Shown here: positions 3,567 through 41,585 of the stretch, one piece after another | Layout of the letters: each line of letters starts with the position of its first letter | Numbering within the stretch: the stretch's first letter is position 1 | Assembly: GCA_030426765.1 (NCBI GenBank) | Contig: JAUHXV010000009.1 | Coordinates: 10,633 to 74,632, forward strand | Length of the DNA: 64,000 nt | From: Bacteroidia bacterium | GTDB lineage: Bacteria > Bacteroidota > Bacteroidia > Chitinophagales > Saprospiraceae | Direction of reading: 5' to 3' | Program-made: the position numbers and the translations under genes | Notes under the pieces: generated by a model | The model's input: the letters and a program-made list of their open reading frames with translations, nothing else | Told to the model about the DNA's origin: nothing | Databases searched by the model: none

Positions 3567-3634
3567 GCGAAGGGCAGAGAGCTTGGGTCTCCTTCGCTAA
3601 AGCTACGGCGACTGAAAGGCGTAGGGCGGAGAGC
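3567..3634. repeat. 68-nt composite block (7-mer-type GC words flanking a type A module), paralogous to 39168-39235
   Basis: gcgaagggcagagagc-ttgg-gtctccttcgctaaagctacggcgact-gaaaggcgtagggcggagagc compared with gcgaagggcggggagc-atgt-(same 27-mer)-gaaaggcatggggcggagggc. Confidence 0.9.
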
Positions 3635-3667
3635 TTAGAATGTCCTGTCTTAAGGAGATAAATCTAA

Positions 3668-3768
3668 ATCTGTCTCCAGTAAACATCCCCTTCATCCAAA
3701 GGACTGCGCCTTCTGGACAAGCGAGGGGGATCAGCCTACGGCTGAGGGGGTTCCCCGTGACCCAGAAA
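3668..3768 (-). repeat. mosaic hairpin element, long form (copy i)
   Basis: See finding 1. Contains hairpin tcagcc-tac-ggctga at 3731-3745 and the long hairpin 3685-3731. Confidence 0.9.
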
Positions 3769-3852: not shown

Positions 3853-4301
3853 CCCGCGAGCTAAAGCACAGGGCTCCCGACACATCGGGATAAAAAAAAG
3901 GAATGATTTCTACCAGGATGGTCATGCGCTTAAGCGCGACCTGATTTATCACCTCTCACTAAAATCCCTTTCAACGCATTGAAAGGCTACCATTCATGGA
4001 ATCAAATTTCCCTCGTCCCACAGATCACCTTTTAGTCGCCGTAGCTTCAGCGAAGGAGACCATCACTCCATCACTCCCCCCGAGCTAAAGCTCGGGGCTC
4101 CCGACACATCGGGATAAAAAAAAGGAATGATTTCTACCAGGATGGTCATGCGCTTAAGCGCGGACTGATTTTTTTGATCTCACTAAAATCCCTTTCAACG
4201 CATTGAAAGGCTACCATTCATGGAATCAAATTTCCCTCGTCCCACAGATCACCTTTTAGTCGCCGTAGCTTCAGCGAAGGAGACCATCACCCCATCACTC
4301 C
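3853..4301. repeat. tandem duplication, 2 x 224 bp
   Basis: gctcccgacacatcgggat at 3873 and 4097; agtcgccgtagcttcagcgaaggagac at 4034 and 4258. The copies are identical except for one 16-nt patch. Confidence 0.95.
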
Positions 4302-6131: not shown

Positions 6132-6232
6132 ATCGGAAATTTATATTTCTGCGAAAGTAAAGAATTCGGAGAGCATGGCCTTTACGCTTGTCTGTTATCC
6201 GGCGGTGTTGATCGGAAATGTTGGATTTATAT

Positions 6233-6304
6233 GGGGTGATGGAGTGATGTGGTGATGTGGTGATGTGGTGATGTGGTGATGAGGTGATGAGGTGTTGGAG
6301 TGAT
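6233..6304. repeat. 8-bp tandem array, 9 units (GTGGTGAT family)
   Basis: ggggtgat ggagtgat gtggtgat x4 gaggtgat gaggtgtt ggagtgat. Confidence 0.95.
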
Positions 6305-6323: not shown

Positions 6324-6515
6324 CTCCGTGCTTTAGTTCGAGACCAGCCGAACAGGACTCTTTTAGGATGATTAAAAGTCACCTTCGCTGAAGCTATGGC
6401 GACTAAGAAGAGAATGAGGTTTTTTCCATGATCCCCGAGCTAAAGCACGGGGTAACATTTCAATTTGTGGAGGTTGATTTGTCATGTCTGCCTAACTCCG
6501 AGCTAAAGCACGGAG
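6324..6515. repeat. cluster of four GC-TRAA-GC core modules
   Basis: 6324-6342 (inverted, degenerate), 6378-6404 (type A), 6433-6452 and 6496-6515 (type B hairpins). Confidence 0.85.
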
Positions 6516-6545
6516 CTAACAGATTACCCTCGCTCAATGCACCAT

Positions 6546-6657
6546 GCCCTTCGCCCTTTGCCCTTTGCCCTTTGCTCTTTGCTCTCCGCCCTCCGCCCTC
6601 CGCTCTCCGCTCTCCGCCCTCCGCTCTTCGCCCTCCGCTCTTCGCCCTTCCCCTTTT
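6546..6657. repeat. 7-bp tandem array, about 16 units (GCYCTYY)
   Basis: gcccttc gcccttt x3 gctcttt gctctcc gccctcc x2 gctctcc x2 gccctcc gctcttc gccctcc gctcttc gcccttc ccctttt. Confidence 0.95.
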
Positions 6658-6662
6658 CCCAT

Positions 6663-6670
6663 TACCTTTG
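6663..6670 (+). promoter_or_regulatory. TAccTTTG match to the Bacteroidota -7 box, only 4 nt before the MBL-fold gene ATG
   Basis: tacctttg at 6663-6670, ATG at 6675. The spacing is too short for a normal leader, so it may be coincidental. Confidence 0.2.
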
Positions 6671-8428: not shown

Positions 8429-8544
8429 ATTTATATTGCGAAGTGAATTGAGGAAAAACAGGGGTCGGGGTTGCGCCGTTCCACTGATCAACAAATCGCT
8501 CTTTGCCCTTTGTTTCATTGATACTGATATTTCTGGTTCACGTA

Positions 8545-8604
8545 GAACCCCCTCGTTCTGCGAACGATCCCCCTCGAAAAGGGGATGCATTTTCCTGGAG
8601 ACGG
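8545..8604 (+). repeat. mosaic hairpin element, short form (copy ii)
   Basis: gaaccccc-tcgttctgcgaacga-tccccctcgaaaaggggat-gcattttcctggagacgg. Confidence 0.9.
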
Positions 8605-8724
8605 AAAGGGAACCCTTTTCCTTATTAAGTTTTGCACGCAGAGTCGAAAAGACGCAAAGGTGTGATATTCTCATATCAATAAATCACTCCATCACTCCCT
8701 CACGTTCCGCGCAGCGGAACTTTC

Positions 8725-23133: not shown

Positions 23134-23185
23134 GATTTTTTCTGTTTCTGTGATACAGCTTTAAAGAATAGGCTCGTATTTATCA

Positions 23186-23270
23186 GGGCAGAAAAGGCGG
23201 AAAAGAGAAAGAGGCGGAAGGGCAGAAAGCGTTAAAAACCAAAACTGCGCCTCTGCGCCTCTGCGTGCGT
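23186..23270. repeat. purine-rich block plus the 30-nt module (paralog of 8328-8428)
   Basis: gggcagaaaaggcggaaaagagaaagaggcggaagggcagaaagc, then aaaactgcgcctctgcgcctctgcgtgcgt. Confidence 0.9.
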
Positions 23271-23396
23271 CTTTAAAGTGCTTAGTCCAGCATAGCGGGA
23301 GAACCCCTTCGCTGTCATACCGATCGATCGAGAGCACCTTTCAGGGCTCTTCTTTTATTTGGCTGTAAAAATCACTTTCGCCGCTTCCTCTTTTCC

Positions 23397-23415
23397 GCTC
23401 CCGACACATCGGGAT
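23397..23415. repeat. hairpin module gctcccga-caca-tcgggat (third copy)
   Basis: The 19-mer is identical to 3873-3891 and 4097-4115. Confidence 0.85.
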
Positions 23416-23507
23416 CTCTTTTCTGCCCAAAGCATTACTATATCAACCGTAGAATTTATCGACAACAGCCCCCTCAATACTATTAACCGATAAACTCATA
23501 AAACGCA

Positions 23508-23515: not shown

Positions 23516-23525
23516 CTCACCAAAC

Positions 23526-23566
23526 CCTATAACCTTATAACCCTATAACCTAATAACCTTCTTAAC
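23526..23566. repeat. 8-bp tandem array, 5 units ending in TAAC
   Basis: cctataac cttataac cctataac ctaataac cttcttaac. Ends 7 nt before ATG 23573. Confidence 0.9.
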
Positions 23567-27022: not shown

Positions 27023-27108
27023 ATCTGTATAAATAAGATAAACCTGAAAAAGTTGTAAAATTCAACAGGGGAGGGCAAAGATGGGGAATTCTCGAAAAAC
27101 CAGCACAG

Positions 27109-27311
27109 ATCTGTCTCAAGGAAAAGCATCCCTCTTCTTCCAAAGGACTACGCCTTCTGGTCAAGCAAGAGGGATCGCCCTACGGGCGAGGGAGTTCTCC
27201 GTGACCCAGAAAAACTACCCTCACTGGACGCGGAGGATCTCCGTGACCCAGCAAAGTCTTACCATCCCTCTTCCTCCAAAGGACTGCGTCTTCTGGACAA
27301 GCAAGAGGGAT
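27109..27311 (-). repeat. mosaic hairpin element, long form (copy iii), plus a partial second copy
   Basis: 27109-27212 is the full element. 27226-27252 carries a second ggag-gat-ctcc gtgacccag module. 27264-27311 is a second long hairpin. Confidence 0.9.
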
Positions 27312-30171: not shown

Positions 30172-30290
30172 TACTTTCTCTCTGGCATGATCCCATCGAA
30201 AAAAGAAAAGTTGAGATCAACTTCGAATGCAGGATAATATATAGCCTACAGCATATAGCTAAAAACAAAAGACCTATTTATCTTCATATC

Positions 30291-30330
30291 CTTTTAACCT
30301 TTTAACCTTTTAACCCCTTAACCGCATAAC
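30291..30330. repeat. 8-bp tandem array, 5 units ending in TAAC
   Basis: cttttaac x3 cccttaac cgcataac. Confidence 0.9.
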
Positions 30331-39149: not shown

Positions 39150-39167
39150 GTAAGCCGAGGGCAAAGG

Positions 39168-39235
39168 GCGAAGGGCGGGGAGCATGTGTCTCCTTCGCTA
39201 AAGCTACGGCGACTGAAAGGCATGGGGCGGAGGGC
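39168..39235. repeat. 68-nt composite block, paralogous to 3567-3634
   Basis: See 3567-3634. Confidence 0.9.
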
Positions 39236-39243
39236 GAAGGGGC

Positions 39244-39304
39244 GAACCCCCTCGCTCTACGAGCGATCCCCCTTAGAAAGGGGATGCCTTTCCTTGAGAC
39301 AGAT
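39244..39304 (+). repeat. mosaic hairpin element, short form (copy iv)
   Basis: gaaccccc-tcgctctacgagcga-tcccccttagaaaggggat-gcctttccttgagacagat. Confidence 0.9.
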
Positions 39305-39400
39305 ATGAATTTGTTTCCTTAAGCCAGATAAATGATTCCTCTCCGCCCTCAGCTCTTCGCCCTTCGCTTTCTGCCGTTCCACCAATCACTACTTCATTCT

Positions 39401-41251: not shown

Positions 41252-41267
41252 GTGTACAGTGATTGAT

Positions 41268-41571
41268 AGTCTCCTTCGCTGAAGCTACGGCGACTGATAG
41301 TCTTCTTCGCGCAAGCTATGGAAACTAAAAGTGGATTTGATGATCTACTAAAATACTATAATCCCATGGATCAGGGAGTTTGAGAGGTTTAGAGATGTCC
41401 TCTATGACGACAAGGTTTAGGGGATTAGCTACCACTTTTGGGCAGAAAAGAGAAAGAGGCAGAAAAGCATCTGGTATAAAAAGAGACCGAGTTAAAACTG
41501 CAATTAGAATTTTTATGCCCCATGCCCCATGCCCCATGCTTTTTAATTGCCGTAGCTTCAGCGTAGGAGAC
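41268..41571. repeat. intergenic region bracketed by inverted type A modules, with a (GCCCCAT)3 array
   Basis: Type A at 41268-41294 (+), degenerate 41299-41325 (+), 41546-41571 (-). atgcccc x3.5 at 41515-41539. Purine-rich block at 41440-41468. Confidence 0.85.
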
Positions 41572-41585
41572 CCTCACCCAATATT

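Follow-up and report, generated by a model that had tools for sequence, protein, structure and literature searches.

Composite palindromic repeats, probably of a REP/BIME- or MITE-like kind, in intergenic spacers of a Saprospiraceae-like chromosome

The REP families described by Di Nocera et al. (PMC3733652) have stems of 5-13 bp and loops of 2-3 nt, and their sub-families differ by alternative complementary stem residues. They include loop variants in which the inner regions are self-complementary (up to 27 bp), and REPs both cluster into mosaics and insert inside other palindromes (PMC3733652). All of these features are present in the intergenic element analyzed here, and the traits noted in it are thus hallmarks of that kind of repeat. 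The definition of REPs also includes an unpaired GTAG or CGTC tag at the foot of the stem (PMC3733652), a point that is taken up at the end.

The element was studied in a 64-kb stretch of DNA (hereafter, the window), which is ordinary chromosome encoding RecA, a NifU-like protein, UDP-glucose dehydrogenase, peptidases and several proteins with T9SS sorting domains. Among the named homologues of its L-2-hydroxyglutarate oxidase-like protein, the best are from Saprospiraceae. To our knowledge, dispersed palindromic repeats have hardly been described in the Saprospiraceae (Bacteroidota), and the lineage is poorly studied. Four full copies and one partial copy of the element were found in the window; it is modular, with partial and nested forms, and occurs in both orientations and exclusively in intergenic DNA. 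On balance, we consider it probable that these copies form a new family of intergenic repeats, composite and palindromic, of an already known kind (REP/BIME- or MITE-like), in which the complementarity of the arms is kept at the DNA level.

The copies share a common layout, in which GAACYCCC is followed by a 6-3-6 hairpin (B), by a second hairpin (C) starting with ATCCC, and by a T-rich stretch that ends in GAGACAGAT or GAGACGGA, belonging to module D. Copy 1 (39244..39327, + strand) consists of GAACCCCC, hairpin B (39252-39266), a short hairpin C (39266-39285), the T-rich GCCTTTCCTT, hairpin D (39296-39317, with two G·T pairs) and a CTTAAGCCAG tail. Copy 2 (8530..8621, + strand) begins with module A (TTTCTGGTTCACGTA, 8530-8544) and continues with GAACCCCC, hairpin B (8553-8567), a short hairpin C (8567-8586), a D-like segment (GCATTTTCCTGGAGACGGA, 8587-8605) and a distinct 3' hairpin (8603-8621). 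The other two copies are located on the - strand. Copy 3 (27109..27212) comprises module A (27198-27212), hairpin B (27175-27189), a long hairpin C (27128-27175) and D (27109-27127), the terminal part of which forms, together with the flank, the palindrome ACAGATCTGT. Copy 4 (3645..3768) similarly comprises module A (3754-3768), hairpin B (3731-3745), a long hairpin C (3685-3731), D (3654-3677) and a CTTAAGACAG tail. Partial copy 5 (27264..27311, - strand) is a long hairpin C by itself and starts at the A of the TGA stop codon of the upstream L-2-hydroxyglutarate oxidase-like gene, while an additional A-like module with the hairpin CTGGGTCACGGAGATCCTCCGCGTCCAG (27224..27251, - strand) lies between copy 5 and copy 3. 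Module A (TTTCTGGKTCACG) forms the 5' part of copies 2, 3 and 4, and the 3' hairpin D is common to copies 1 and 4 (GAGACAGAT/ATTTGTTTC and GGAGACAGAT/ATTTATCTCC, respectively, then CTTAAG).

Two forms of hairpin C were observed: in copies 1 and 2 it is short (ATCCCC, an 8-nt loop and GGGGAT), whereas in copies 3 and 4 it measures 47-48 nt and contains an inner hairpin, TCCA(G)AAGG/CCTTTGGA. The long form equals the short form with an imperfect palindrome of ~29 nt placed in the loop, and the pattern of this insert had three matches versus none expected. The copies fall into two sub-families according to the loop of hairpin B, which is TAC or TGC in copies 1 and 2 (with the short C) and GTA in copies 3 and 4 (with the long C). 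Between copies, blastn produced alignments of 44-79 nt at 86% identity, with E values of 1e-5 to 1e-14, i.e., far beyond chance. The copies scored 51-57 bits with a covariance model (R1), versus ≤12 bits for the rest of the window, and the same model, run with its filters off, revealed no divergent further copies in the window. An earlier, sequence-only reading had reported four copies of a recurring, mosaic non-coding element at these sites and on these strands, with short and long forms of hairpin C and an inner fold in the latter; direct reading, an exact module search and the above scores bear this out. The element proved longer and more modular than had been described, owing to modules A and D, copy 5 and the additional A-like module, and the proposed 3' consensus, GCYTTTYCCTKGAGACAGAT, is exact in copies 1 and 3 but only rough in copies 2 and 4.

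Hairpin B is the sole stem that is perfect in every copy: TCGCTC-TAC-GAGCGA in copy 1, TCGTTC-TGC-GAACGA in copy 2, TCGCCC-GTA-GGGCGA in copy 3 and TCAGCC-GTA-GGCTGA in copy 4. All 24 stem cells of the four copies are Watson-Crick pairs, with no G·T, and in three of the six pairs both partners have changed (5 cells). Of 500 column shuffles of the ungapped alignment (A3), only 2 equaled the observed covariation or pairing, and the pairing fell to 21-42% when the 3' arm was slid by 1-3 columns. A star-tree calculation in which substitutions are neutral and independent gives P < 1e-7 for four or more compensated cells without any mismatch (rates of 0.075-0.15 per lineage, chosen to bracket the ~14% divergence between copies). 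One of the changes is a CG-to-GC transversion pair, with no wobble intermediate, and copies 3 and 4 differ in two adjacent compensated pairs. Moreover, the TAC loop of copy 1 is the reverse complement of the GTA loop of copies 3 and 4, i.e., a loop inversion. The earlier claim that both arms of this hairpin change together thus withstood these controls. The broader claim that the stems are always complementary holds for hairpin B but not for the others, since hairpin C of copy 4 contains one C·A mismatch, the inner stem of copy 5 one uncompensated A·C, and hairpin D three G·T pairs and one C·A. The window shows no excess of TC-N4-N3-N4-GA hairpins, their density being ordinary in comparison with other loci. 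Elsewhere in the window, the hairpins CCCCGAGCTAAAGCACGGGG (6433-6452) and CTCCGAGCTAAAGCACGGAG (6496-6515) differ by a compensated pair (C-G to T-A), so that hairpin B is not the only compensated palindrome of this genome.

All of the copies are located between ORFs with ordinary housekeeping domains, and the genes that flank them have unrelated functions. Relative to both of their neighbors, copies 3 and 4 are in the sense orientation and copy 1 is antisense, and the ORFs around copy 2 are convergent; copies 2, 3 and 4 are downstream of, and sense to, the upstream ORF. No transposase or RAYT (PF01797-type or other) was found among the ~48 ORFs of the 64-kb window, a small fraction of the genome, nor were any tRNA genes found in the window. 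Rfam gave no match at the gathering score in the window, and none at the copies even at E ≤ 5. The ends differ from copy to copy, and neither consistent terminal inverted repeats nor target-site duplications emerged from the four copies. Copy 4 is flanked by direct repeats of 20 nt and copy 1 by inverted heptamer arrays. Neither an empty site nor a presence/absence polymorphism was seen for the element.

The spacers of this chromosome harbor additional repeats. Copy 1 is embedded in a larger imperfect palindrome (39150..39385, 236 nt; DNA fold of -49.5 kcal/mol, z -3.1), the left arm of which consists of purine-rich heptamer arrays (GGGCGAA type) and a hairpin of a family termed X, and the right arm of pyrimidine-rich arrays (CTCTCCG/CCCTTCG). 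Tandem arrays of 7-8-nt units (ATGTGGTG, CCCTTCG/CTCTCCG, CCTTATAA, CCTTTTAA and GCCCCAT) were observed in intergenic spacers at 6231-6302, 6533-6665, 23524-23560, 30281-30325, 39150-39180, 39339-39380 and 41527-41547, often as inverted pairs around hairpin cores. Related genomes have heptamer-type arrays of their own, e.g., ATCACTAA/ATCACCTC at positions 1-373 of the related contig L159 (GCA_037969625.1, JBBKXT010000168.1). A region of 246 nt (23185-23430) forms a single long hairpin (DNA MFE of -58.2 kcal/mol, z -6.9), with arms of purine-rich and pyrimidine-rich heptamer arrays and a core that includes a segment, GCGGGAGAACCCCTTCGC, similar to the Y element described below; this region looks MITE-like. 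The second dispersed hairpin family, X (GTCTCCTTCGCTAAAGCTACGGCGACT), is represented by at least eight copies in both orientations, including those at 3586-3619, 4028-4061, 4252-4285, 6378-6410, 39188-39220, 41264-41300 and 41541-41577. X hairpins adjoin copies 1 and 4 of the element, and the orientation of the element relative to X is opposite in the two cases. Small hairpins such as CCCCGAGCTAAAGCTCGGGG also crowd the spacers of the element. Downstream of an M2 peptidase gene, two tandem units of 224 nt (3853-4300, 95% identity) each carry the perfect hairpins CCCCGAGC-TAAA-GCTCGGGG, TCCCGA-CACA-TCGGGA and CCTTTCAA-CGCA-TTGAAAGG. The tetranucleotide GATC occurs 504 times in the whole window, ~2 times the number expected from base composition, and is present at the B/C junction of all copies (CGATCCC), in the A-like hairpin (GGAGATCCTCC) and at the end of copy 3 (CAGATCTG).

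In three samples, the Logan assemblies break off at window position 27176, within hairpin B of copy 3; the end point of two assemblies is 39217, shortly before copy 1. Repeats would cause such endings, which suggests that more copies of the element occur elsewhere in the genome; the contig breaks could alternatively reflect strain variation. In a collection of genome contigs, a search in which the 15-nt hairpin was left free returned 103 matches, a number expected by chance, and none had the features of the family. Among metagenome contigs, leaving the three inner pairs free produced 48 matches, nearly all in coding or high-GC DNA; in a few of them (L114/L121, L124/L143, L128 and L146) a genuine hairpin occupies the corresponding spot between different flanks. 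Two exact-pattern scans of viral contigs gave chance-level matches and nothing useful, and the joined six-frame peptides of all copies, used to search for spurious ORFs over further copies, had no match at E ≤ 10.

Two of these metagenomic loci are described here in their own right. In L114 (984-1030) and L121, both JGI metagenome contigs with a GC content of 0.40-0.43, the sequence GAACCCCC-TCCCGCTCCGCGGGA-TCCCCCTAAAGTGGGA is similar to the GAACCCCC-B-TCCCCC..GGGGA core even outside the bases that the search pattern prescribed, and could be either distantly related to the element or coincidental. In L124 (Ga0208047_1001065, 502-531; an unrelated metagenome contig with 44% GC) and L143, two adjacent hairpins of 15 nt each, TCCCGC-AAA-GCGGGA and TCCCGC-TCC-GCGGGA, are situated in frame within a coding region for an S1 domain, with a further five TC-SSSS-NNN-SSSS-GA hairpins in the same 10 kb. 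The L124 hairpins look like mini-palindromes inserted inside genes.

Relatives with 75-78% protein identity in the oxidase retain the oxidase-NifU gene order, and no copy of the A-D element was detected by model R1 in ~70 kb of their sequence. Instead, the oxidase (DAO)-NifU spacers of the related contigs L157, L159 and L163 contain a different element of ~165 nt, designated Y, with one copy in L157, one in L163, and four full copies plus a partial one in L159; those of L161 and L162 carry other GGCT..AGCC hairpins. The Y consensus is multi-hairpin and shows a few compensated pairs (e.g., CCCCAG/CTGGGG versus CCCCTG/CAGGGG). Y and the A-D element can be aligned over TTTCTG..GGAGAACYCC.TCGC, which amounts to partial homology. 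Furthermore, a Y fragment (GAGGAAAAACAGGGGTCGGGGTTGCGCCG, 8450..8478, + strand) is located in the window ~50 nt upstream of copy 2, in an order that matches the tandem Y arrays of a relative, and a second fragment site occurs at 23295-23312. Given the occupation of orthologous spacers by Y and this partial homology, the A-D family looks, on sequence comparison, like a lineage-specific branch of a wider set of rapidly turning-over, multi-hairpin spacer elements.

The same spacers display other features. In L159 (11213-12540), the oxidase-NifU spacer has grown to 1.4 kb, and a gene for a DUF559 protein (Vsr-like endonuclease fold) is located within its Y array; the product may be a nuclease that targets, or travels with, the Y repeats. 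A block, AATTCCCCATCTTTGCCCTCCC ... TTTTACAACTTTTTCAGG, upstream of the NifU-like gene is kept in all of the relatives (window 27030-27085; L157 11405-11476; L159 12580-12650; L163 2806-2876; L161 11403-11416), while the remainder of the spacer is replaced, and is probably the promoter or leader of that gene. A similar motif, ATCTTTGCCCC, was observed directly 5' of the start of the UDP-glucose dehydrogenase gene in L159.

According to the explanation that we favor, the element would be a string of small hairpins (A, B, C and D) dispersed between the genes of an uncultured, Saprospiraceae-like bacterium (Bacteroidota). Its copies would have spread by a process acting on DNA. One conceivable route is transposition by an enzyme encoded elsewhere that recognizes folded single-stranded DNA; another is recombination and duplication between repeats. 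The complementarity of the arms would be kept because the hairpin must form in DNA, and template switching, in which one arm is copied from the other, may aid this process or account for it entirely. Hairpin C and the T-rich run resemble a weak intrinsic terminator, such that individual copies may incidentally end or stabilize transcripts, but this activity would be a side effect rather than the reason for the existence of the family.

The alternative that survives best, although we consider it rather unlikely, is that the copies are structured RNA modules (a terminator, a 3'-end stabilizer or a multicopy small RNA) maintained by selection at the RNA level. Hairpin C, together with the T-rich GCYTTTYCCTT, was matched by a loose intrinsic-terminator scan on the sense strand of copies 1 and 2, and three of the copies (2, 3 and 4) lie downstream of and sense to an ORF; however, copy 1 is wrongly oriented for its neighbors, being antisense to both adjoining genes, and the T runs that follow hairpin C are short (4 T). 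In all four copies the predicted RNA fold is more stable on the sense than on the antisense strand (-31.7/-28.9, -33.0/-31.3, -55.2/-44.9 and -50.2/-48.5 kcal/mol), which leaves room for an RNA role, but the fold z-scores are modest (-1.4 to -3.0). The strong covariation of hairpin B would likewise fit an RNA structure, as would the G·U pairs of hairpin D, which occur on the sense strand only. Against this, hairpin B lacks G·U pairs altogether and the C·A mismatches of hairpin C would wobble only on the opposite strand; the total is three wobble-type mismatches for the sense strand (G·T, all in D) versus three for the antisense strand (C·A), i.e., no strand preference. The lack of G·T in hairpin B and the inversion of its TAC/GTA loop are fitted at least as well by a process at the DNA level as by RNA selection. 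In addition, no Rfam match was obtained, the flanking genes are functionally unrelated, some copies are partial or rearranged, and the orthologous sites of the relatives are devoid of the element. An RNA function is thus possible but not indicated.

Mönttinen and Löytynoja (PMC8794818) showed that one template-switching event during replication can generate a perfect stem, compensatory changes at several bases or an inverted loop, and the mechanism offers a non-selective route to the pattern of hairpin B. The sequence-only reading had taken conserved pairing with diverging sequence as a sign of selection on folded RNA or ssDNA; the non-independence of the pairing stands (P < 1e-7), but template switching would explain it as well (PMC8794818). 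Carried to its limit, this leads to a reading in which the copies are inert leftovers of duplication, without mobility or function, and their complementarity is purely mutational, through template switching, quasi-palindrome correction or small hairpin inversions. The two adjacent compensated pairs that distinguish copies 3 and 4, the loop inversion between copy 1 and copies 3/4, and the strict Watson-Crick pairing of hairpin B all agree with such events, and other palindromes of the window, e.g., those at 6433 and 6496, behave alike. The reading nevertheless leaves unexplained the occurrence of copies of 60-120 nt in four unlinked spacers and in both orientations, the assembly breaks at the copies, and the tolerance of mismatches in hairpin C (copy 4), inner C (copy 5) and hairpin D but never in hairpin B. 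We therefore regard it as an improbable account of the family as a whole. Finally, the notion that the arms pair by coincidence, at four low-complexity matches unrelated to one another, is refuted with near certainty by the alignments of the four exact matches, their R1 scores and the covariation controls that they passed, even though the anchor GAACYCCC N15 TCCC, with up to two mismatches, was found 8 times versus the 7.95 expected from shuffled sequence.

A further and quite doubtful proposal concerns the origin of the individual units. In three of the four copies, a CCCCC run stands on either side of hairpin B, and deleting this hairpin gives back a CCCCTT..AAGGGG hairpin similar to the CCTT..AAGG one of the Y element. 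Both hairpin B (15-16 nt) and the ~29-nt palindrome carried in the loop of hairpin C might accordingly be ultra-small units that insert themselves into the arms or loops of hairpins already present, the Saprospiraceae spacers being built up by repeated nested insertion. If true, nested insertion of mini-palindromes would be the Bacteroidota counterpart of the small dispersed repeats of cyanobacteria, and template switching during replication, in place of a transposase, could possibly be the direct source of the mini-palindromes.

What is new here is a repeat family, together with a hint of a superfamily, in the Saprospiraceae, and not a new kind of system. Such repeats fragment the metagenome assemblies of these organisms. 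The family also offers a compact natural case for telling selection on hairpin structure from template-switch mutation as the origin of compensatory substitutions.

The element shares features with several known systems. Two assignments were considered and rejected: cyanobacterial repeats (HIP1, Nostoc), since GCGATCGC occurs only twice and the T9SS sorting domains point to Bacteroidota, and an integron attC, CRISPR or riboswitch, since no integrase, cas genes, arrays or conserved gene context were found. Small dispersed repeats and STRR heptamer arrays were reportedly described in heterocystous cyanobacteria by Elhai and colleagues in 2008 and by Mazel and colleagues in 1990. As in that case, very small nested units stand beside heptamer arrays in the spacers, but the phylum and the sequences are different, and the nesting in the present element is deduced from short and long loops and from the comparison with Y rather than from many independent insertions. 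The subterminal hairpins of IS200/IS605 elements and the attC sites of integrons, which act as folded single-stranded DNA substrates, likewise combine a conserved structure with a varying sequence, as expected from the recognition of folded single-stranded DNA; in contrast to them, the window contains no Y1 transposase, integrase or cassette organization, and the flanking genes are ordinary chromosomal ones. MITE-like palindromes (ERIC/IRU, Correia, RUP and BOX) are similar in size (60-250 nt), in their long hairpins, and in their occurrence as several intergenic copies, and BOX is also modular, with a variable middle in its boxA-boxB-boxC arrangement. They differ from the element in that no clean terminal inverted repeats or target-site duplications are evident from the four copies and no matching transposase is known.

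The element is also close to REP/BIME sequences. The earlier statement that the element belongs to no named family is correct for its sequence, which lacks an Rfam match, but its kind is known (PMC3733652). The REP definition calls for several extragenic copies of 20-40 bp, to which hairpin B (15 nt) and hairpin C (20 or 47-48 nt) correspond, and for clustering in mosaics, as seen in the A-B-C-D chain, in the extra A and C modules, and in the X hairpins and heptamer arrays that share the spacers. REPs number tens to thousands in a genome, which also encodes a cognate RAYT (Y1 transposase), often with REPs on either side of its gene; four and a half copies of the element are present in the window. 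No unpaired GTAG or CGTC tag is found beside the stem: the bases adjoining hairpin B are CCC on one side and TCCC on the other. Here GTAG is confined to two settings, where it spans the junction of loop and stem (copies 3 and 4) or precedes the stem by seven nt (copy 2), and the nearest equivalent of a tag is G[T/G][A/G]G, seven nt upstream of the stem. The host is a Saprospiraceae-like member of the Bacteroidota, whereas REPs are best known from proteobacterial groups, and, unlike REPs, the units of the element are embedded in heptamer-array palindromes. With the tag absent, and with RAYT sought, and not found, in the 64-kb window only, the element is classified as REP/BIME-like rather than as a member of that family. 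In both cases the units are short, GC-rich palindromes located outside genes, with 6-9-bp stems and 2-4-nt loops, and occur singly or chained in mosaics, in either orientation and mostly between unidirectional or convergent genes; both comprise sub-families with complementary stems and with short versus long, self-complementary loops (PMC3733652), and both may act, as a side effect, as terminators or mRNA stabilizers.
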